A DNA stretch of 64,000 nt from Chloroflexota bacterium. Its GTDB lineage: Bacteria; Chloroflexota; Dehalococcoidia; Lucifugimonadales; JADFKI01. The notes below the pieces were generated by a model. It did no database searches and had not been told where the DNA came from. It was given only the letters and a program-made list of their open reading frames with translations. The translations under genes were made by a program, and so were the position numbers. The stretch is taken from positions 64,001 through 128,000 of the forward strand of contig JAQBUT010000002.1 of NCBI GenBank assembly GCA_027623195.1. The letters run 5' to 3'. Numbering within the stretch: position 1 is the stretch's first letter; the number at the start of each line of letters is the position of its first letter. Positions 25,210 through 41,572 of the stretch are shown here, one piece after another.

Positions 25210-28200
25210 ATGTATAGGCAGCATCTAAGTATACTCATTGTTGACGATTCCGATCGTGATGTCATTCTCCTGGAGCGCATGCTCAGACAGGAAGGGTACG
25301 ACATTACCTTGGAAAGAACCGACACTGCTGAGAGCCTGAGAAGGTCGCTACGCACTCAGGACTGGGACATCGTGGTGTCGGCGTGCAGGCTCCCCACTTT
25401 CAGCGCGTACAAGGCTTTGGAAACAATTAACGAACTCGGCCTTGATATTCCCCTTATAGTTGTCTCTGAGACAGTTGATGAGATGGACGTTGTTGCCCTC
25501 GTTAAAGCCGGGGCTGTGGATTTCATCAGGAAAGATAACCTTTCTCTTGTGGCATCTACCGTCAAGCGGGAAATACGCAATGCCGCTAGAAGACGCGAAG
25601 AGCTCCTCGCAGAACTGGACCACCAGGAAATTCTCGCTGACGAGTTTGAACAGACCCGTGCAGAAGCCCAAAAGCTCGCAAACGAGAATGCAGCTATCGC
25701 CGACATCGGGAGAATCGTCAGCTCTACTCTGGACTTTGATGAGATATGTGAAGCTGTTGCAGAGCCGATTAAGTCAATCGTGCCCTACGACAGGTTTTCA
25801 CTTTCGGTCCGGAGAGATGATGGCGAGACCATCGAAGTTCGATTTTTGGCTGGAATTGAGATGCCTAGTCACTACGTGGGAATGGTCTTCGACTTTAACC
25901 GATCTATTTCCCGTGATTCTCGTAGGGCTAGCGAGGGTCGCGTTTTCGAGCTATTGGAATCAGATACCGCCCCATCTCAATTGGAAAAAAACCAGATTTT
26001 TGCGGAGCACCAAAAGCCGTTCTATGCTTTGGGGCTTAAATATGGGTTAACAGCTCCTCTGATCTCCAATAATCAGGTAATCGGGTATATGGCTTTCAGG
26101 TCTCTTGAGGAGGGAACTTACTCCGATTACCAATTGGGCTTAGCGGAACGAATCGCTCCACTGCTGGCGGGGGCTCTCGCCTCAGAAAAGCTGTACCAAC
26201 AGGCACTGCGGGAGTCCCGTGAAAACGAAGCCCTGGCCTCTATTGGCAGGGCTATGGGTTCTACTTTAGATGTTAAGACCGTATACGGTTGCGCATACGA
26301 TGCGCTCAAAGATCTGGTCCCTGTGGACAGGGTGAGCGCAGCACTCATTATGCCCGATGGGCAGCACATGATTTCCAACTATTTTGCCGGCATAGAGATG
26401 CCTGGGAGACGCGTTGGAGAGATCTTCCCAATCAGAGACGTACTTCGGTTCGTGATAGATTCACGGACAGGGCACCTGATGCAGGGGGCCGAGTACGAAG
26501 ACATAAAGTCCGACCGGTCTCAATTTATAAATAGTGGGCTGCAGTCTCAGATGGTTGTCCCCATGGTTTCGGAAGACGAAGTCATAGGGCTGATTTTTGT
26601 TCGGTCCACGAAGCCCTTGGCGTATACCCCCAGGGACCTTGCGCTGGCAGAGCGAATTGGGCTGCAAATTGCGGGGGCGGTAGCCAAAGCCAGGCTTCAC
26701 GAGCAGATGCAACATCTGGGCAACGAGCGCCAGGTGCTATCCGAAATTGGCAAGGTAATCAGCTCATCCTCCAAGTTGGACGACGTTTACGAGGAATTAG
26801 CAAAACTTGTGAAGAGGATAGTCCCTTACGACCGTTTCTCAATTTGGACCATTACAGAGGACAACAGGCGAAGAGGCGCATTTCGGACTGGAATGACATT
26901 GGACGAAATAGATAACCCCGAATTCATTGTTGATCTGGGAGAGAACGTCGAAAAGGCATTGCGGGCTCAGGCTCCAGTGCTAAGTGTTCCGGATGCAAAA
27001 CGAAATCTAATTGAGCATTCTCGAATCCGTGATTCCGCCCTGGCTCAGGGCATAAGGGGTGTTATCACCGCCCCTCTCATATCAGATGGTCATGTCGTGG
27101 GAGTACTGATAGTTGGCACCATTGTAGAGGACTCCTATTCTCAAAATGAGATGGACCTGCTAGAGAGGGTCGCCAATCAGATAGCAGGCGCCATGTCCAT
27201 TGCTTTGTTAGCAGAAAACCTGAAACTAGCCGAAACTGCTGCCTTGCAGTTGGCTCGCGAAAATGATGCCGTTGCAGAGATCGGACGGACCATCACCTCC
27301 TCAATAGACATTAGTGATGTATACGAAAAGTTCGGTGAATTGGTCCGGGAATTTATCCCGTTCGACCATACTGTCATTGCACTGATCGAATCTGTTAATA
27401 ACCGAATGAGTATGGCCTATGTCTACGGGGAAGAGGTATCAGGCAGAAGGGTCGGAGAGTTTTCAAACCTATCCGACGATTTCTTGAAGGACATGAATAT
27501 CGAGCACGGTGGCTTCATTCTTCACCTGGAAGACGATGAAGAGCTAGTTGCTAGCCAGTACTCCCGCTACCTGCCTGGGTATCGTGTAGGCGCCAGGTCG
27601 TTTCTTACAGTGCCGCTTGTTTCAGAGGGAGAGACCATCGGCTTAATTCGCTTTTGGTCAAAGGAACGCAACGCATATACCGAAAAGCAGCTGTTGTTCT
27701 GCGGTCGAATCGCACGCCAAATTTCCGGCGCCGTGAAAAACGCCCAGATGCACAAGGTGATCCAGCGCGAGGCAGAAGAACGGAAGATTCTCGCCGAGAT
27801 AGGCAGGGTCACCAGCTTCTCTCTGGACCTGGATGAAGTGTATTCAACCTTTGCCGAGCAGGTGAGAAGGCTCATCGCCTACGACCGTGTGGCTATTGGC
27901 CTGATTGATGAAGAACAGGACAACCTGACCATCGCATTCGTTGTAGGCTCAGCTGTAAAGGGCAGAGAACCGGGGGATTTCATTTCGCTGAATGGGACTC
28001 ATAGCCGAGATGTTATACGGAGGCGGGATGGCGTACTGACGCAGGAAACCGACGAGTCCGAAATAAAGTCGCTCTTCCCAGGTCTGATGCCGCTTTTTGA
28101 GGCAGGACTGCGCTCCTTCATAACGATGCCGCTCGTCTCCAATGACAAGGTTATTGGCACCTTTCACTTACATAGCGTGCAGGAGAACATGTACTCCGCC

Positions 28201-31200
28201 GAAGACCTGAAACTCGCGGAGAGGATCAGTATTCAGATCGCTGGAGCCATTGACGCCTCTAGATTACATACCAAGCTTCAGAGAGATGCCACGGAGCGAC
28301 AGGTACTGGCAGAGATCAGTCGTATTATTAGCTCTTCGCTGGATGTACACGGCGTTTACACAGGATTCGCGGAGCAAGTCGCAAAGCTGGTCCCCTTCGA
28401 CAGAATCGCCATCAGGGGTTTGGGTTCCGGCCCTAATTCTCTGAAGCACCTGTACACGGCCGGGTTGGAGTTTTCCGGAGCCCCAGCGGCTGGCGAGGAG
28501 TTTTCCAGTTCGGGAACTCTGGCTGAGAGCGTTTTGCGGTTCGGTAAAGGGTTGGTGCTCAATGCTGAAGATGACACAGCCTTCAACCTGACATATCCCG
28601 GATTTGCCTCCTTCTACGGGGCAGGCTTCCGATCTTGCGTTATTGTGCCGTTGGTCTCAGATGACCGAACAATAGGCACCATTTCAATCATGTCGCTTGA
28701 GTACGGCACCCACGATGAGAATCATCTCTCGATTTTGCAGCGCGTCGCCAACCAGATTGCCGGGGCTATTGCCGCCTCATTCCTGCACGGGGTAGTTCAG
28801 CAGGAAGCGGTAGAGAAGGAAGTGCTGGCGGAGATTGGTCGGGTAATAAATTCGTCCGTAAATATACAAGATGTCTATCCTGACTTTTCACGACAGGTGC
28901 ATCGGCTTATACCCTTTGTCAGATTAGCCATTTCCACTCTGTCCGAAGATGAATCATATGCGCAGGTTGCGTCGGTGGACGGTGAAGGAGTGAATGGGCT
29001 TCGGGAGCGGGACGCTGCCCCTGTTGCCGGGTCTCCCCTGGAACTGGCAATTAAAGGAAAACAACCCGTTTTGTTGTCTCTGGACGAGCTACAACAATTT
29101 ACCGAAACCTCTCCAGAAACTGTCGCACTCCTGCAGGCCGGTATATCAGGAATGATTATCGTGCCGCTTCTGAACGGGGATAAAAGCATTGCCACCCTGA
29201 ACATTAGTGGCAATGAGAAGGATCTGACTCGGGCTCATCTAGACTTCGGGAGACGCGTTGGCGCTCAAATTGCCGGGTCCATCGCGAATTCGCAGCTTTA
29301 TGAGGAGCAAAAACGTACGGAAGAGGCGCTGACAGTAAGCGAGGCGCGTTATCGAGACCTCTTCGAAAATGCCAGCGATCTGATACAGAGCGTAACCCTG
29401 GATGGAAAATTCCTGTACGTAAACCAGGCCTGGCGGGATACGTTGGGCTATGCCGAAGATGAGTTGGAAAGCCTGGACTTCTTAGAGATTATTCATGCCG
29501 ACCACAGAGAACATTGCCGGGACCTTTTGCTTAGCCTGCTTGATGGCGAACCACAGATCAATTTGGAAGCTGATTTCGTTACCAAGAGCGGTCAGATTAT
29601 CTCTATCGAGGGCAGGAGCAGTTGTCAATTCCAGGACGGTGTGGCCGTAGCTACTCGTAGCATATTGCGGGACGTTACCATGCGGCGTCAGGCTGAAGCG
29701 GCCTTGCGGAAGACTGAGGCAGAGGCGGCAAGACTAGCCAGTGAGATGAACGCCAGGGCAGCCCAGATCGGTACCCTTACTCAGATGAATAATATTGTTA
29801 TGTCCTCCCTAGATTCAGCTCAGGTGATAAGTGAAATTACCAGAGCTGCTGCCGACATCATGGGCGTCCCACTGGCGGCATTCTGGGCATACGATGAGGA
29901 ATCAGAAACTCTCCGTCTGGGTCCTGGCGGGTTTTCTTCACGGGAGTATCAAGCCGACTTTGGGATTAGCGAAATGAAGGTGGGCGAAGGCGGTTCGGGC
30001 TGGGTGGCGAAGCACAAGGCCCCACTTCAAGTAGAGAACGTATTCGAAGATGATCGTTTCTTAGCGCTTGACTGGATGAAGAGGGCTGGGCTCCAAAGTT
30101 ATTATGGTGTGCCAATTATGGTGAACAGCAAGTTATCTGGGGTACTGGCACTTAACGACAAGGTCCCAATGAATTTTAGCCCCAGTCAAGAGCTTATTCT
30201 GGAACACTACGTTACCCAGATAGTGGCTACCTTACGCAACGCCCAGCTGTACGAGGAGATTCAGACAACGGCCAGGGAAACGGCTATGCTGGCGGATATC
30301 GGACGGCTGTTTAGCTCGGCCACAAATTTGAGCGAGATTTATGAGGAGTTCTCCAAGTTAGTTAACGAACTGGTGCCGGTGGACCGAATAACAGTAAACC
30401 TGTTGGATGGGGATGGGGAACGGCTCACTCTTGCCTATCACAGTGGAGTTCACCTTAAAGACAGGCATCTAGGCGCGGTAATACCATTGGCGGGAACTTT
30501 TTCCGAACAGGCAGTCAGAAGTCGCGCAATTACCGTTTTTAACCCCACGTCGTTAGATGAGGTTAAAGCAACCTATCCTAGCCTCGAGGGACCTTACGGG
30601 GCTGGCATTCGAGCCTTCGTTGGCGTTCCGCTAATTGCCAACGACGAGGTTTTTGGTGCCTTGCAAATGAGGTCTAAAATAGCCAATGCATTTAATGGCA
30701 GGACAGAGGGCCTGGTCCAGAGTATCGCCAACCAGGTAGCCGGCACTATCGCCAGCGCCCAGCTCTATGGTGAAATCCAGGAAACATCTCGGGAGACGGC
30801 CGCACTGGCCGATATTGGTCGACTTTTCAGCTCTGCCAATCAGCTTAGCGACGTTTATGAAGAGTTCGCTCAAATGATCAATCAGCTGGTGCCGTCGGAC
30901 AGAATAACAGTCGATCTCTTGGACGCAGAAAAGAAAAACATCACGATCGAATATCATAGCGGTGTGGAAATCGAAGGCAGAGAGGCCGGGACGAAACTAC
31001 TTCTCCAGGGGACGCTGGCAGAAGCGGCAGTTAAATCCAGGTCGGTCATCGTGCTCAACCCCACACCGGATAATGGAGAGTTGGATAGGTTCCCCAATCT
31101 GGGTGACAATCAAGATCAGGGAATAAAGTCATACATGGTCGTACCGCTTATCGTAAATGACGAGGTTATTGGTACGCTGCAAATGAGATCATTTGCAGCG

Positions 31201-33321
31201 TACGCGTTCAACAGGCGAGCGCAAGGTCTGGTCCAGGGCATTGCCAACCAGGTTGCCGGTACCATCGCCAATGCCAGGCTTAACCAGGAAGCGCAGGAGG
31301 CTCGCGAGGTCGCTGAAGATGCCAACAGCGCGAAAAGCGAGTTTCTGGCCAACATGAGCCATGAAATTCGTACTCCTATGAATGGGGTCATAGGGATGTC
31401 CGACCTCTTGTTGGATACCGACCTGAGCGGAGAGCAACTGGAGTACGTGAACGGCGTCCGGTCTTCCGCAGATTCCCTTTTAGGTATCATCAATGACATT
31501 CTGGACTTCTCTAAAATTGAAGCCAGAAAACTGGATGTAGACGCGCTCAGCTTCAACCTAACCGAGGCCTTGGGTAGCCATATGACTCTGTTCACGGAGC
31601 GCGCAAGTAGCAAAGGTCTGTCCTTGTCTCATTCGATAGACCCTCAGATGCCTGAACTGGTCGTCGGCGATATGCTCCGTATAGGGCAGGTCATGACGAA
31701 TTTGGTGGCCAACGCTATCAAGTTTACTGAGGAAGGCGGAGTAACTGTAGACGTTGCCGTGGAATCCCAAAGTGACAGCGATGTTGATCTCCATTTCAGC
31801 GTGTGGGACACAGGTATTGGGATATCGGAAGACAAACAGAAGCACATATTCGAAGCCTTTTCCCAGGCTGACGGGTCTGTCACGCGGCGCTTCGGAGGCA
31901 CTGGTCTTGGCCTGGCAATCTCATCACAGCTTGTGCACCTTATGGGAGGGCGCATATGGGTGGAAAGTGATGTCAAAAATGGCAGCGCATTCCACTTTCA
32001 CCTTACCTTGCCGAAGGGTACCCCAGAGCTAGAAAAGGTCCCAACGAAGGAGTCCGTTGGGTTGACGGCCCTGGTGATAACAGGGGATGGGTTCGAAAGT
32101 AGTTCTCTTGAGCAAATTTTGTCTGCAAATGGCGTAGCTGTAACGATTGTGAATGATGCCCAAGAAGCCCTGGTTAATTTCGATGATGAAAATATCCCCG
32201 GTCAGCCCTTCGGATTCTTAATTGTGGACGGCGATATGCCTGGAACCGACGGCGAAGATTTTTCGAGGGGCTTAAGGGAACGAGTAGACAGTTCTGGTGT
32301 CCCCGTTATTATGCTCTCGTCACCTCATGATAGAGAGGAACATCAGGGTAGGCCTTATGCCGACATGGTGTCTTTCGTTGACAAGCCTGTAACGGATTCT
32401 GCCTTGGCTGAGGCGATTCGCCACGAAAAGGAAGGCCAAACCGATATCGATGACGTACCTGCGGACTTCTCGGCTCCCGAGGCGCCGACACCTGCAGTGG
32501 ATGTTCCTAAGAATCGTCGTCCGTCTAGATCGCTCCACGTGCTTCTGGTAGAAGACAACGAGGTGAACCAGGTCCTGGCAGCTCGGGTGTTGGAAAAGCA
32601 GGGACATACCTTGGCTTTGGCTAAGCACGGCGAAGAGGCGCTTGCTCTGCTGGAAGAATCTACGTTTGACCTGGTGTTAATGGACGTGCAAATGCCGGTC
32701 ATGGACGGGTTGGAAACGACAAGGCTGATCCGCGACCGGGAGACGGAGACTGGGGAACATCTGCCCATAATAGCTATGACTGCCAACGCCATGAAGGGCG
32801 ATAGGGAGAAGTGCCTGGAGGCGGGCATGGATGATTACGTATCCAAGCCACTGCTCACCCAAGTCTTATTTGAGGCCATGGCCAATGTCCTGGAAAATAA
32901 GACCTCATCTTCAGCGTTTGTGGAGTCGGACAGTGGCGCGGCAGACCTTACGGCGAACCAAAAATCTGCAATGGACCTGGACGCAGCGCTTAAACGCCTT
33001 GGCGGCAGCCCCAAGCTATTCCTCGAACTGTCCGGCATGTTCGTAGATAAGTGCCCCGCATATTCGCGAGACCTGCGAGCGTCCCTTCTAGGGGAGAACG
33101 TTGAGGAGTTCACCAGGCATGCACATTCGCTGAAGGGTGTCCTCGGATTCTTCGTGGCCGATTCGGCGTTCGACATGTCGTTGCAACTGGAAATGCTTGG
33201 TAGGTCAGGCGATCTGACTACGGCCGAACCCATTCTCGTTCAGCTCGAGTCCGAGTTACGTCGTATCTGTGAAGAGATCGAAGAGGCTCGACTGGCCCTC
33301 AGCGCCGGACTTCCCTCTTAG
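25210..33321 (+). CDS. Giant cytoplasmic hybrid histidine kinase: REC - 7xGAF - PAS - 3xGAF - HisKA - HATPase - REC - REC - Hpt
   Basis: Repeated LAEIGRxxSSxLD...PL...IG...QIAGA units; [55 protein letters not shown]. Confidence 0.95.
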
Positions 33322-38313: not shown

Positions 38314-38349
38314 AGTCGACTCCCAATTCTTTTAAAGCCAATAGCAATA

Positions 38350-38394
38350 GCCGCTCCACACGTGGCTATCCGAAGAGTATACGTCAGGAACGGC
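38350..38394 (-). promoter_or_regulatory. Putative S6:S18 autoregulatory leader structure
   Basis: GCCGUUCC/GGAGCGGC stem, inner ACGU/ACGU stem, CUUCGG tetraloop and unpaired CC; located in the rpsF 5' UTR. Confidence 0.45.
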
Positions 38395-38428
38395 AGTTAG
38401 TACTAATGCTGCCAAATTTACCCAGAAA

Positions 38429-38458
38429 ATTATATCACGCTCGTTTGCATCTCTACAA
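38429..38458 (-). promoter_or_regulatory. Putative rpsF promoter (extended -10)
   Basis: Minus strand TTGTAG-N18-TATAAT with TGn extension. Confidence 0.55.
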
Positions 38459-38758
38459 TGAAATCGGGCCGCTCGTTTTCGATTCATGCCTTTTTAAATT
38501 GGCGGCGCCGTGAATCGAAGGGGCAACGGCCCGTACATTTGCTGCGCAATCGACCGGGGGGGCCTTAGGGCATTGCACAGTTCATGGTGATGGTTCATAA
38601 AATAAGGGCAGGTCGATTTGGGGAAAAAGGAAGAGAAGCCATTCCCAAATTGTTGATACACGGGTATTTCCCCTATTTCCCCAAGGGTAGCGTCCCGATA
38701 GGGCTTCTAAGTAAACCCAATTCATGTCATTAGGTGGTTACTTTACCCCCAAGGCTGT

Positions 38759-38788
38759 TTGACAGAATGCGGGTCGGCCAACTAGTAT
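38759..38788 (+). promoter_or_regulatory. Putative sigma70 promoter of the panD operon
   Basis: TTGACA-N18-TAGTAT. Confidence 0.6.
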
Positions 38789-38794
38789 GGAGAA

Positions 38795-38921
38795 AATTCG
38801 GTTGGCCCGTAAAGGCCGAACCAATTGTTTGCGAAACTTACGTTATGCCGATTGGGATACATATGAATAGAGATAAGATTTCCTGAATGGCGGCTCGCAT
38901 GGGCACCGCCATTCAGGAAAT
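38795..38921 (+). ncRNA. Structured 5' leader (two hairpins) of the panD-methyltransferase operon, function unknown
   Basis: Bulged hairpin 38795-38826 and perfect 16-bp stem ATTTCCTGAATGGCGG/CCGCCATTCAGGAAAT (38878-38921). Confidence 0.4.
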
Positions 38922-39137
38922 AACTTCACATTGCGCCCGCAACCGCCCCCTTCCCTGCGAGCCCTAACCTACTTCACTGCACTTACCGGACTGCTGGGCG
39001 TTACCCCGCCTGCGCACTAGACTATGTCTTTCTCCTTTTAAATCTGGCGTTATTTGCTGTGAAAAGCGTGCGCCTTCGTCGGTATATTCGTCTTCAATCC
39101 ATATCAACAAATCGAGCAAAAATTAATTGGGAGAATC

Positions 39138-39515
39138 ATGATGCGAACAGTTCTACGATCTAAGATTCATCGAGCCTTCGTTACGCACTGCAACGAGGAC
39201 TACATTGGTAGCATCCTCATCGATAAGGACCTGATGGAGAGGGTAAACCTTTGGGAGTATGAAAAGGTTCTGATATGCGATGTAACCAATGGCAACAGGT
39301 TCGAGACCTATGCCATTCCAGGTGAAGCCGGCTCTGGAGTCGTATCCGTGCAAGGTGCGGCTGCCAAGCTGGTAGACCAAGGCGATTGCATCATCATTAT
39401 GTCATTTGACCTTACCGACGAGCCCATTGAGCCGCAGATGATACTGGTAAACGAGCAGAACGAGTTCGTCGAATATCTCGGAGAGGCGCACTATGCTAAG
39501 CAAAAGGTTCACTGA
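39138..39515 (+). CDS. panD: Aspartate 1-decarboxylase-like pyruvoyl enzyme
   Basis: SKIHRA, Y-x-G/S-I-x-ID autocleavage site, NGNRFETY, GAAA. Confidence 0.9.
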   Translation: MMRTVLRSKIHRAFVTHCNEDYIGSILIDKDLMERVNLWEYEKVLICDVTNGNRFETYAIPGEAGSGVVSVQGAAAKLVDQGDCIIIMSFDLTDEPIEPQMILVNEQNEFVEYLGEAHYAKQKVH

Positions 39516-40314
39516 GCAAGACACCGAAAGTTACTACGACAGCCAGGACTCGATCTACAGCTCCTTTTGGGACCCTGACGGTAGCGTACATTGGGGTTAT
39601 TTCGGCGAGTCCACTGGGCACGACTTTCTAAAGGCGTGCGCCAATTTGGATTCACTTATGTCGCGCTTGGGACAGATTGGTCCTGACTCAAAAGTCTTGG
39701 ACCTTGGCTGCGGCAACGGGACCACAGCACTGAGTCTGCATGAGGCTTTCAAATGCGAGGTTGTTGGAGTTGACCTCAGTGGCGTTCGTATCGACAACGC
39801 CCGGAAAGCCCTGTTAGAGCAGTCGCCCGAAGTACAAGCGCGTGTATCGTTCGAGAAGGCCTCCGCCATTGACCTCCCCTTCGAGGATGGCGCTTTCACT
39901 CACGTGTGGAGCCAGGCGGTACTCTACCATGTTCACGATCAGGAAACGGCCCTGAAAGAGGCGTACCGCGTGCTCAAACAAGGCGGTACCCTGATTTTTG
40001 ATGATCTACTCAAGCCAAAGCCTGACGTAAGCGAACTGGCCAAAAAGCATGTCTATGAGCGGCTTTATTTCGACACTGAGTATAGCTTCGAGACATACCA
40101 GAGAGCTCTGGAGCGTGTTGGCTTCACCATCTCGGAGGCTCGGGACCTGTCAGAACACTTGAAGATGAGCTACTGGTGCCTCTCCATCATGACCCATAGT
40201 CGGGGGGGCGAGCACGCTGACCATTATGAGGAGCTGTCGCACTCTTACGAGCAGACCGCCCAGGCAGTGGTGAATAGAGAGCTTGGCTGGGGACTGTTCC
40301 TCTGCCAAAAGTGA
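39493..40314 (+). CDS. SAM-dependent methyltransferase, sarcosine/dimethylglycine N-methyltransferase-like
   Basis: YYDS..IY..FW...VHWGY, VLDLGCGNG, VWSQ..LYH, C-terminal LGWGLF; overlaps the panD end. Confidence 0.85.
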   Translation: MLSKRFTEQDTESYYDSQDSIYSSFWDPDGSVHWGYFGESTGHDFLKACANLDSLMSRLGQIGPDSKVLDLGCGNGTTALSLHEAFKCEVVGVDLSGVRIDNARKALLEQSPEVQARVSFEKASAIDLPFEDGAFTHVWSQAVLYHVHDQETALKEAYRVLKQGGTLIFDDLLKPKPDVSELAKKHVYERLYFDTEYSFETYQRALERVGFTISEARDLSEHLKMSYWCLSIMTHSRGGEHADHYEELSHSYEQTAQAVVNRELGWGLFLCQK

Positions 40315-40336
40315 TCAATCCGCGGGAGACCAGAGC

Positions 40337-40969
40337 ATGACGCAAGAAGATAACCTGGTCCAATGGGTCTACGCCTCCAAGAACGAGGACGAGTTGGAGG
40401 AGCGGTATGACCATTGGGCAAAAACATATGACGAAGACTTGAACCGAGACTTTGGCTGGTACGGCCCGATCCGAGCAGTAGAGTCGATGGGCAAATACGT
40501 CTCTAAGGACGCTCGGATTCTGGACGCAGGCGCAGGCACGGGCCTGGTAGGAAAACTGCTGGCAGACGCTGGTTACACCAACCTCGTAGCAATGGACCTA
40601 TCTCAGGGAATGCTGGATGAGGCCCGTAACAAGGGCGTGTACCAGGAGTTCCATCAGATGACCATGGGTGAAACCCTGGACTTTCCTACGAACTCCTTTG
40701 ATGCTGTTGTTACAGTTGGTGTATTGACTGTAGGCCACGCCCCGGTCAAATCGCTTGACGAACTGGTCCGGGTAACTAGGCCAGGCGGATATATTGTGTA
40801 CACGTTGAGGCCGGACCTCCTGGAGGATGGCGGCTTCAAGGAAAAGCACGCCGAGCTAGAAGCAGCCGGCAAGTGGAAGTTGACTGAAATGGGAGAGCCC
40901 ACCAAGATTCTCCCCAAGGGTGAACCGGACGTCTTCCATCAAGTGTGGGTCTTCGAAGTGCTGGCGTAG
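40337..40969 (+). CDS. Class I SAM-dependent methyltransferase
   Basis: YDHWAKTYDEDL, ILDAGAGTG, DLSQGML, ELVRVTRPGG. Confidence 0.9.
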   Translation: MTQEDNLVQWVYASKNEDELEERYDHWAKTYDEDLNRDFGWYGPIRAVESMGKYVSKDARILDAGAGTGLVGKLLADAGYTNLVAMDLSQGMLDEARNKGVYQEFHQMTMGETLDFPTNSFDAVVTVGVLTVGHAPVKSLDELVRVTRPGGYIVYTLRPDLLEDGGFKEKHAELEAAGKWKLTEMGEPTKILPKGEPDVFHQVWVFEVLA

Positions 40970-41083: not shown

Positions 41084-41572
41084 ATGCCCGATTTGACACC
41101 TATGGCCGCATCCGTTGGCGAGAAACTTAAGCAGAGTGGCCAGAATTTGGCCGTCTCCGAGTCCTCGTGTGGAGGGTTGCTTTCTGCCTGCCTCGTATCG
41201 GTCCCGGGGGCGTCAGCTTACTACGTAGGTGGTTCTGTGGTTTACACCAGGGTCGCCCAGAAGGGTCTGCTAGATGTGCCCGACAGCGCTATGGAGGGCA
41301 TGCGCGCCAGCACCGAAGCCTACGCTCTCATGAACGCCCGTGCCTTACGGGAGCGTCTTGGCACCACCTGGGCTCTTAGCGAAACAGGCGCCAGTGGTCC
41401 GACGGGAAACCGCTATGGCGACGATGCAGGCCATGCCTGTATCGCAGTCGCCGGTCCCATTGAGCGGGCCATAACCGTAGAGACTGGCAATTCTGATCGC
41501 GAGGCCAATATGTGGGCCTTCGCCAAGGCAGCCTTTGATCTGCTGGAAGAGTGTGTTTCGGAGGCTGGCTAG
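41084..41572 (+). CDS. CinA C-terminal domain (PncC-like) protein
   Basis: AVSESSCGGL, PGASAYY.GG, ETGASGP. Confidence 0.88.
   Translation: MPDLTPMAASVGEKLKQSGQNLAVSESSCGGLLSACLVSVPGASAYYVGGSVVYTRVAQKGLLDVPDSAMEGMRASTEAYALMNARALRERLGTTWALSETGASGPTGNRYGDDAGHACIAVAGPIERAITVETGNSDREANMWAFAKAAFDLLEECVSEAG

Follow-up and report, generated by a model that had tools for sequence, protein, structure and literature searches.

BANMT is a COMT-type enzyme, and we know of no panD in the plant that carries it. According to the parts of PMC6657504 and PMC9699165 that describe it, BANMT (EC 2.1.1.49, Limonium latifolium) has the substrate and product that are proposed below for a bacterial gene cassette, unlike which it is a single trifunctional enzyme. 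In the glycine betaine synthesis by GSMT and SDMT/DMT (Aphanothece halophytica; part of PMC9699165; profiles NF051855 and NF041675), two tandem or fused class I SAM methyltransferases are used, as would be the case here. Moreover, DsyGD, DsyG and DSYE appear by description to belong to the same broad methyltransferase group as the first methyltransferase of the cassette, and a DsyG-like fusion of a methyltransferase with a PanD domain has been published from Porphyra umbilicalis with no function assigned (PMC11306096). METTL27/WBSCR27 is a mammalian orphan protein whose substrate is not assigned in the part of PMC9240639 consulted, where a nucleic acid is favoured on structural grounds and a small molecule is considered possible.

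The locus was found in a window of 64,000 nucleotides, which is the whole stretch of contig JAQBUT010000002.1 that was analysed. The host is a marine-type Chloroflexota bacterium. The cassette comprises panD and two methyltransferase genes, named here MT1 and MT2, and on balance, if only just, its sequences lead us to favour a path from aspartate through beta-alanine and on to beta-alanine betaine, a compatible solute.

Organization of the locus

The following features were located, all of them on the forward strand:

38759..38788 (+): sigma-70-type promoter-like site TTGACA-18-TAGTAT, a consensus match
38880..38919 (+): perfect 14-bp inverted repeat (38880-38893 / 38906-38919), spanning the leader ATG
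38887..38967 (+): leader reading frame of 26 codons with an LPCEP-stop end, predicted to be translated
39141..39515 (+): panD, predicted pyruvoyl-dependent aspartate 1-decarboxylase of the Gln72 clade tied to MT1, with a second ATG at 39138
39493..40314 (+): MT1, 273 aa, class I SAM methyltransferase with an SDMT/PMT/RebM-type fold, of a family apart from SDMT
40337..40969 (+): MT2, 210 aa, class I SAM methyltransferase, closest among solved structures to METTL27/WBSCR27 and elsewhere frequently joined to MT1

The layout given in the first-pass annotation was reproduced, with the 3′ end of panD overlapping the start of MT1 by 23 nt and 22 nt between the MT1 stop and the ATG of MT2. Of the tandem ATG codons at the panD start (39138/39141), the second is favoured, giving 124 aa, as judged from the Shine-Dalgarno (SD) spacing and the starts of homologues; the SD of MT1 lies inside panD. 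The promoter-like site agrees with the consensus at 10 of 12 positions and is treated as a consensus match only, since three such sites were found against 2.1 expected; it is the probable start of a leader-panD-MT1-MT2 transcript. Furthermore, DNA of the locus is present in estuary metagenomes; no RNA data set was among those listed as containing it, which says nothing about expression. Contigs from three runs of an independent estuary study showed no indels over the locus, no single one of them spanning the whole of it; one further contig covers it whole but may be the source of this DNA. The downstream cinA gene was rejected as a part of the cassette, as among the first 71 loci it stood beside MT2 only twice, in the own genome and in its congener.

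Conservation of the cassette and gene fusions

The main survey covered 401 genomes of the order, in which 81 of 115 full-length panD copies immediately precede an MT1 gene of the same orientation (80 genomes, 13 families). Both genes co-occurred in 83 genomes, compared to about 26 expected under independence, although kin are not independent. MT2 came next in 74 of 79 linked loci, and no other neighbour recurred in more than five of the 40 loci inspected more widely. The panD gene and the two methyltransferase genes are thus one conserved unit, as had been supposed from the window. In addition, an alignment scan that was no census gave at least 80 loci among the matches listed, 10 of them from close relatives. 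In a class-wide sample, MT1 appeared in 2 of 401 genomes, while a scan of genome contigs for MT1 only and a plasmid search gave no match.

Fusions were found for both pairs of adjacent genes. PanD-MT1 fusions of 389-394 aa formed four clusters, replicated in several assemblies and occupying three positions of the PanD tree, and MT1-MT2 fusions accounted for 11 of the best 150 representatives, including EAW37235 of Lyngbya PCC 8106. Moreover, Symploca NER48858 joins PanD to a GSMT-like domain (NF051855, E 2e-15) and an MT1-like domain, and these fusions point to decarboxylation followed by N-methylation, the course that the first-pass annotation had suggested. However, the Symploca protein may be a parallel system, since FastTree placed its MT1-like domain in a eukaryote-like clade and not with MT1 proper, and in the quick PanD tree its PanD belonged to a different lineage from the linked PanD. 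Enzymes of the gamma-butyrobetaine-dioxygenase family act on trimethylammonium compounds, and an enzyme resembling them was found fused to MT1 (P0149) or in the same cluster (L119).

The unit also varies. No panD match was obtained in 16 of 99 genomes with MT1, and MT2 was absent beside MT1 in 5 of 20 panD-less MT1 loci. In two genomes (G001 and G565) the panD of this type is separate from MT1, and in G565 and G672 the leader and a Gln-type panD stand directly before metH. In Paraprochloron, the cassette genes head a cluster with asparagine-synthetase-like, ureidoglycolate-lyase-like and two dioxygenase genes, in which a PF04115 gene is present.

The decarboxylase and the two methyltransferases

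PanD of the cassette matched PF02261 with 136 bits (cut-off 25, E 6e-40) and passed TIGR00223 with 125 bits (cut-off 106). The catalytic and substrate-binding residues of PanD, with the cleavage site Gly24-Ser25, are listed in part of PMC3314653, Arg54 being the residue that binds the beta-carboxylate (parts of PMC3975893 and PMC3314653), while Asn72 touches Ser25 and Gly24 in the zymogen and is dispensable for activation (part of PMC3975893). As in the enzymes of Escherichia coli (1ppy) and Mycobacterium tuberculosis (2c45), these catalytic and substrate-binding residues are all kept in the cassette PanD, and K9, H11, Y22, G24, S25, R54, T57, Y58 and G73 were invariant in all 76 intact linked Gln-type sequences. 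In contrast to both enzymes, it has Gln72 for Asn72, falls in its own clade and is linked to methyltransferases instead of panBC; in a quick tree, the linked PanD sequences formed one clade with Gln72 fixed. The QGAAA motif in place of NGAAA is therefore present as first described, but the altered substrate that had been read from it is not supported, because all the catalytic and aspartate-binding residues are kept (Arg54, Lys9, Thr57 and Tyr58 in 76/76), and the MT1-tied PanDs of Symploca and Paraprochloron carry Asn72. Thus, PanD of the cassette likely removes the alpha-carboxyl of aspartate.

For MT1, the best structural match was the SDMT of Galdieria (2o57; Z 30.9, with an rmsd of 2.6 over 261 aligned positions), level with SpnF (30.3), and phosphoethanolamine N-methyltransferases came just behind (29.4 and 29.2). 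It has the SDMT/PMT-type fold with capping helices, and in the alignment its R190, which is invariant, coincides with the Arg of ILDRI, a motif of SDMT. The likeness to SDMT drawn in the first-pass annotation stands for the fold, but MT1 is not an SDMT: it scored 99.9 bits against NF041675 (cut-off 550), where a genuine SDMT from cyanobacteria reached 455, its identity to bona fide cyanobacterial SDMTs is 24-32%, and in the comparison with GSMT/SDMT called for earlier its family formed a clade separate from SDMT-like sequences (FastTree, local support 98). Furthermore, the substrate cannot be read from the fold, since the best PDB sequence matches were the natural-product O/C-methyltransferases AtmM, MitM and RebM. 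A search of the ESM Atlas turned up no methyltransferase clusters other than unnamed ones.

MT2 is without a characterised relative. Its best PDB match was METTL27/WBSCR27 (7qcb, E 2.9e-22), with the runner-up at 7e-11, and weak BioC-type matches were also obtained; a structure model built with no alignment was of low quality (pLDDT 58.8). GSMT was ruled out as its identity by the absence of a match to NF051855 at E 1e-14, a profile for which a true GSMT scored 503. Compared to the GSMT and SDMT pair, the cassette therefore resembles it in the fold and ILDRI arginine of MT1 and in the GSMT-like/MT1-like pairing of Symploca, and departs from it in the low SDMT score of MT1, in the METTL27-like MT2 and in having a leader frame as well as a decarboxylase of its own.

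The leader reading frame

A short reading frame (38887-38967) ending in LPCEP-stop, absent from the first-pass annotation, precedes panD. An LPCxP-type end was found upstream of 60 of 79 linked panD genes, compared to none of 32 Asn-type unlinked ones, and the core was followed by a stop in 58 of 60 matches. The frame was open for at least 22 codons in all 58, while 43-48% of the other frames were open for fewer than 20 codons. Moreover, Arg codons were of both the CGN and AGR kinds and the stop swapped between TAA and TAG among strains, so that the conserved C-terminal residues lie in an open frame under amino-acid-level selection. The choice of codons is exceptionally constant (CCC in 57 of 59), so that there is constraint at the RNA level as well. 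In an alignment of eight leaders, the LPCEP block was the only conserved part.

The same frame can be read from an ATG at 38863, where it is open over 34 codons in the estuary strain and cut by TGA (38884-38886) in the window; judged against that strain, the copy in the window is shortened by a new stop. The inverted repeat is perfect only with the alleles of the window, the estuary strain differing at 38881, 38886, 38887 and 38889. Folding of the whole leader was not significant (z -1.38), no Rfam model matched 38314-39200 at E up to 1, and two further LPC[ED]P-stop matches in the own genome were chance-like.

TnaC represents a type of arrest-peptide leader. The frame resembles leaders of this type in being short, upstream and conserved at a C-terminus ending in Pro-stop, and in being followed by C-rich, G-poor sequence with no intrinsic terminator, although no sequence likeness is claimed and the fixed codons set it apart. 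By analogy, the leader probably regulates the cassette through ligand-dependent ribosome stalling. A literature search for leaders of the LPCEP kind found nothing relevant among the matches listed.

Proposed pathway

In the path that we favour, PanD would convert aspartate to beta-alanine, and MT2 and MT1 would place three SAM methyl groups on its amine to give beta-alanine betaine. By analogy with GSMT and SDMT, and from the fold of MT1 and the Symploca fusion, where a GSMT-like domain takes the place of MT2, the early methylations may be attributed to MT2 and the last one to the SDMT-like MT1. PanD would act as an accessory supply step; in MT1-MT2 loci devoid of it, another cellular source of beta-alanine, needed for panC anyway, would serve.

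Alternative explanations

One alternative is that panD is plainly an enzyme of the CoA pathway and the methyltransferases are unrelated passengers. It gains from the own genome (87% complete), where panD is the sole PF02261 gene and panB and panC sit together on contig C11 with no panD there, in line with the earlier remark that they do not adjoin it; the score above the TIGR00223 cut-off fits as well, and part of the beta-alanine may well feed PanC. However, panC was detected in 349 of 401 genomes and panD in 107, at least 242 genomes having the former and lacking the latter; three genomes (about 95% complete) carry the whole cassette but gave no match to panB or panC, and PanD-MT1 fusions arose at three tree positions. 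Nine genomes of one family (f120) have a second, Asn-type panD beside the linked one. The first-pass annotation had warned of an only panD serving CoA synthesis: it is indeed the only one, yet the majority of relatives have a panC and no panD at all. CoA synthesis leaves the cassette unexplained; this alternative is largely refuted, and we regard it as having next to no chance.

The remaining alternatives concern what enters and leaves the cassette. With the same entry, N-methylation might stop at the mono- or dimethyl stage, MT2 might be an O-methyltransferase forming a methyl ester, or the product might be an intermediate of a larger metabolite, as the weak BioC-type matches of an MT2 unrelated to GSMT, the natural-product methyltransferases closest to MT1 and the gene cluster of Paraprochloron would allow; but no further gene is conserved in the cassette within the order studied and the nearest MT1 folds include enzymes that finish trimethylammonium groups, so that such an outcome is unlikely. 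Methylated taurines are known in red algae, and PanD might instead act on cysteine sulfinate or cysteate, the methyltransferases then yielding N-methylated hypotaurine or taurine, since Arg54 could accommodate not only a carboxylate but also a sulfinate or sulfonate, and Gln72 is fixed in the clade. A methyltransferase-PF02261 fusion is found in the red alga P. umbilicalis (PMC11306096). Nevertheless, neither a cysteine dioxygenase (PF05995) nor a cysteate synthase above the cut-off was found in the own genome at its 87% completeness, the surroundings of the cassette contain no conserved sulfur gene and the ordinary Asn72 of Symploca and Paraprochloron fits poorly, making this route improbable; a literature search on PanD with sulfinate substrates found nothing relevant among the matches listed. 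A group II PLP decarboxylase was also looked for in the own genome, and none was found. Pyruvoyl enzymes need a primary amine, which DMSHB does not have, and the invariant Arg54 is ill-suited to a cationic sulfonium side chain; both points weigh against MT1 being an S-methyltransferase of the DsyG/DSYE/TpMMT kind, which would form DMSHB/DMSP or another sulfonium with PanD acting on a methionine-derived amino acid. In its favour are the similar size of DsyG-like proteins, the PF02261 domain of P. umbilicalis OSX77567.1 (PMC11306096), the PF04115 (DsyD family) gene of Paraprochloron and the panD before metH in two genomes. However, the P. umbilicalis fusion, in which the PanD domain is C-terminal, was tested without MSM or DDC activity or any other DMSP-pathway activity, and no Chloroflexota homologue is given among the DsyG relatives in PMC11306096 or its searchable supplements; the sulfonium route is accordingly held to be highly improbable. 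A split DsyGD was rejected, as DsyD is a PF04115 domain and not PanD. Longer fusions were looked for with the PF04115 gene, and none was found; when 321 cyanobacterial genomes were searched with a profile, the matches were MT1 genes in Hormoscilla and otherwise mostly GSMT/SDMT loci, with no DsyGD.

Biological implications

In the open-access literature searched, no bacterial genes for beta-alanine betaine synthesis were found described, and the only synthase found in print was plant BANMT. According to part of PMC9321204, beta-alanine betaine has been detected in microbial communities of the ocean, where its methyl groups are actively labelled, and in those of the North Pacific 13C enters it as methyl groups. 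It is a tentative and rather doubtful prospect, as read from the sequences, that the cassette represents all of the following at once: a microbial beta-alanine betaine route of an abundant ocean lineage (SAR202-type Chloroflexota) shared with marine cyanobacteria, a METTL27-type small-amine N-methyltransferase and a new metabolite-sensing LPCEP-stop arrest peptide, one family having a second leader that is unrelated to it.

If the path to beta-alanine betaine is correct, the cassette, present in about one fifth of the sampled genomes of the order, would give marker genes for microbial beta-alanine betaine production and would supply an oxygen-independent osmolyte module, while MT2 would provide a first substrate class for an orphan human family. 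As for the conserved leader, it is a candidate for a new peptide that senses a metabolite. The marine makers of beta-alanine betaine, the methylation targets of METTL27/WBSCR27-type proteins and the role of the published activity-less Porphyra methyltransferase-PanD fusion would thereby become testable by simple assays.

Results

The three genes of the cassette were found where the first-pass annotation had placed them, with a 23-nt overlap between panD and MT1 and a 22-nt gap before MT2, and each was preceded by an SD-like sequence; a leader frame ahead of them was added in the present analysis:

38887-38967: leader, a short reading frame ending LPCEP-stop
39141-39515, + strand: panD (second ATG at 39138), here panD*, a Gln72-type aspartate decarboxylase gene
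39493-40314, + strand: MT1, methyltransferase
40337-40969, + strand: MT2, methyltransferase

By profile comparison, PanD matched PF02261 and passed the TIGR00223 cut-off, and MT1 and MT2 were both class I methyltransferases. As had been claimed, panD was not a neighbour of panB and panC, which adjoin each other on contig C11, where panD is absent; a separate panBCD set was recovered only as far as this pair, panD being the only PF02261 gene of the genome (87% complete). The host is probably a SAR202-type Chloroflexota, as the named homologues were from SAR202 or Dehalococcoidia. The window DNA was present in 6 of the 7 runs listed, from two studies: an estuarine one and an aquatic one that may be the source. 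A stand-alone CinA/PncC-domain gene (41084-41572) lies 3′ of MT2, an adjacency kept only in the congener, and a 2703-aa hybrid histidine kinase (25210-33321) was read from its sequence as having many GAF-like repeats, PAS, two receiver and Hpt-like parts. Furthermore, the genome harbours a second MT2 paralogue (C41, 53719-54327; 53% identical) without MT1, flanked by genes named from sequence reading as mandelate-racemase-like and truD-like.

Among 401 sampled genomes from the order, 99 had MT1, 107 PF02261 and 349 panC; an initial sample of 60 relatives had given a panD match in 7. Leaving out 11 panD fragments or sub-cut-off matches and 4 weak MT1 paralogue matches, 81 of 115 panD copies lay directly upstream of MT1 (80 genomes, 13 families), so the proposed co-occurrence of panD and methyltransferases is kept in relatives. 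Both genes occurred together in 83 genomes vs. 26 expected under independence (kin are not independent). The loci retrieved yielded 112 distinct PanD proteins, 79 of them linked to MT1, with MT2 next in 74 of the latter, and no further neighbour recurred in more than 5 of 40 loci (11-14 kb each). MT1 appeared in only 2 of 401 genomes of a class-wide sample, so the cassette belongs mainly to this order. Moreover, 16 genomes had MT1 without any panD, and MT2 came next in 15 of 20 retrieved MT1 loci lacking an upstream panD; since the methyltransferase pair persists there, it is the core, and panD* its usual partner. In the congener (G001), the same chromosomal site has the leader directly before MT1-MT2-cinA (L072, C16), and the Gln-type panD lies on another contig (L008, C178). 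Tandem duplications were also seen (L102 in G682:C5, L106 in G737, L206 in G755): either an intact cassette is preceded by a broken panD-MT1, or the cassette has MT1 twice in succession.

Residue 72 was Gln in 76 of the 79 linked PanD proteins (the other three being broken) and Asn in 32 of the 33 unlinked ones, the exception being a Gln-type copy preceding metH. The Gln type falls into a single clade (SH-aLRT 94 in a quick tree of 118 columns), so Gln72 marks a clade and arose once, rather than being a repeated adaptation. Lys9, His11, Tyr22, Gly24, Ser25, Arg54, Thr57, Tyr58 and Gly73 were invariant in PanD*. According to two PanD studies (PMC3975893, PMC3314653), Arg54 binds the beta-carboxylate; in the zymogen, the side chain of Asn72 touches Ser25 or Gly24, yet activation does not require it. 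Moreover, the PanDs tied to MT1 in Symploca and Paraprochloron carry Asn, and between the window and a related strain, panD showed 18 synonymous and 3 non-synonymous codon differences at the sites listed. For these reasons, aspartate is predicted as the simplest PanD* substrate, and the earlier suggestion that QGAAA may signal an altered substrate is not supported; sulfinate or sulfonate analogues are possible. Two loci, L246 (G565) and L244 (G672), carry on the minus strand (1-2827) a Gln-type panD that is set apart from MT1 and sits directly upstream of metH; in G565 an LPCDP leader precedes it.

The MT1 structure model (pLDDT 95.8) matched Galdieria SDMT best (Z 30.9), with SpnF tied and phosphoethanolamine N-methyltransferases close, while AtmM, MitM and RebM were its best solved relatives by sequence. 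The SDMT likeness noted in the first-pass annotation holds for this fold; in terms of sequence, MT1 is not an SDMT, because it scored 99.9 of 550 against the SDMT model, shared 24-32% identity with cyanobacterial SDMTs and formed its own clade. Its invariant R190, common to the SDMT motif ILDRI, may be a carboxylate anchor. MT2 was rejected as a GSMT by comparison with the GSMT model, and its best PDB match was METTL27/WBSCR27, an orphan enzyme without an assigned substrate in the available part of its description (PMC9240639).

Of the 79 linked loci, 60 had the leader pattern (LPC[ED]P-stop or a form close to it) at a distance of 127-376 nt ahead of panD, vs. 0 of 32 Asn-type unlinked ones, and a stricter pattern appeared in 0 of 1580 shuffles. 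When the nucleotide core was searched without requiring a stop, 58 of 60 matches had one directly after them; in 58 of 58 cases this frame stayed open over 22 codons or more, the other two being shut within 20 codons in 43-48%. Arg at position -5 was encoded by both CGN and AGR codons. The RNA sequence is constrained too, because CCC was used in 57 of 59 leaders vs. 47% in coding genes. The 50 nt 3′ of the stop had 39% C and 19% G, with no intrinsic terminator found after the stop and no Rfam match for the region. The leader also preceded MT1 in 5 of 20 panD-less loci. On contigs of three estuary runs, four differing sites remove both the in-frame TGA and the new ATG of the window, which gives one 34-codon frame, with a TAA/TAG exchange at its end. 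With the window's own alleles, a 14-bp inverted repeat becomes perfect, which suggests that these alleles arose by template-switch mutation. Nine loci of family f24 had no LPCEP leader but another conserved frame, 29-30 residues long and with ...ALADLGLxNxVP-stop as its end, which is a candidate second leader peptide of this cassette:

About 146-56 nt before panD: f24 second leader frame (L104 in G647, L220, L223, L226-L230, L232)

A related frame was seen at L105. Our best guess, by analogy, is that the putative leader peptide would act by ribosome stalling, of which TnaC is an example.

PanD-MT1 fusions (389-394 aa) formed four clusters, with 1/1, 4/5, 3/8 and 3/3 full-length members, at three positions of the PanD tree. 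Among the best 150 representatives, 11 were MT1-MT2 fusions (one partial), Lyngbya PCC 8106 EAW37235 included, while Moorena has MT1 as single genes and Symploca NER48858 joins PanD, a GSMT-like and an MT1-like domain. A Hyphomicrobiaceae MAG has panD*-MT1 with MT2 close by. The order in Ca. Paraprochloron is MT1-MT2, panD, asparagine-synthetase-like, PF04115 and gamma-butyrobetaine-dioxygenase-like; in this cluster (Ca. Paraprochloron terpiosi, L119, 6001-12704), MT1-MT2 is a fusion, the PF04115 gene is ureidoglycolate-lyase-like (DsyD family) and a PhyH dioxygenase gene is also present, this cluster possibly making a tailored betaine metabolite. Sequences binned as uncultured Hormoscilla, a cyanobacterium, comprised a Gln-type panD standing alone, with 66% identity to that of the window (L253, 1423-1836), a broken MT1-MT2 fusion apart from panD (L265, 907-2298) and an intact MT1 adjoining two ectB-like aminotransferase genes (L120). 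The Porphyra umbilicalis methyltransferase-PF02261 fusion OSX77567.1 lacked both DMSP-pathway activities, according to an excerpt of its report (PMC11306096).

Discussion

The favoured reading, to which we give somewhat better than an even chance, is that PanD* would convert aspartate to beta-alanine, which the methyltransferases would methylate through the N-methyl and N,N-dimethyl forms; the resulting beta-alanine betaine would serve as a compatible solute. That the product is some other methylated form of beta-alanine is unlikely. Methylated taurines are quite improbable, as neither cysteine dioxygenase nor an over-cut-off cysteate synthase was found in the own genome, and a sulfonium product of S-methylation is less probable still.

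That panD* supplies CoA synthesis, with the methyltransferases as passengers, is very improbable. At least 242 of the 401 genomes of the order have panC without panD, so this lineage gets beta-alanine from another source, and G562, G577 and G643 (95% complete) keep panD*, MT1 and MT2 intact with panB and panC matches absent; both observations speak against the cassette as a CoA-pathway unit. In its own genome, panD* may also feed PanC as a side supply. Nine f120 genomes carried a second, Asn-type panD alongside the linked copy, not beside panBC. Short Asn-type panDs form a clade (L236-L243, L248, L249; families f120, f116 and f19) away from panBC, in f120 adjoining genes named from sequence reading as transhydrogenase and glnB-amtB.

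Neither bacterial beta-alanine betaine genes nor a description of the panD*-MT1-MT2 cassette were found in the open-access literature searched, in agreement with the first-pass annotation, which knew of no such bacterial operon. In the available portions of the sources, beta-alanine betaine arises by way of one enzyme in Plumbaginaceae (PMC6657504, PMC9699165), is known from Ascaris with no genes named (PMC13577585) and occurs as a metabolite with methyl label in communities of the North Pacific (PMC9321204). The predicted synthesis of beta-alanine betaine would work like the GSMT/SDMT route of glycine betaine synthesis, although the cassette is not a member of it, MT1 not being an SDMT nor MT2 a GSMT. 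Furthermore, the Gln-type panD found before metH, the methionine synthase gene, ties the cassette to methyl-group recycling.
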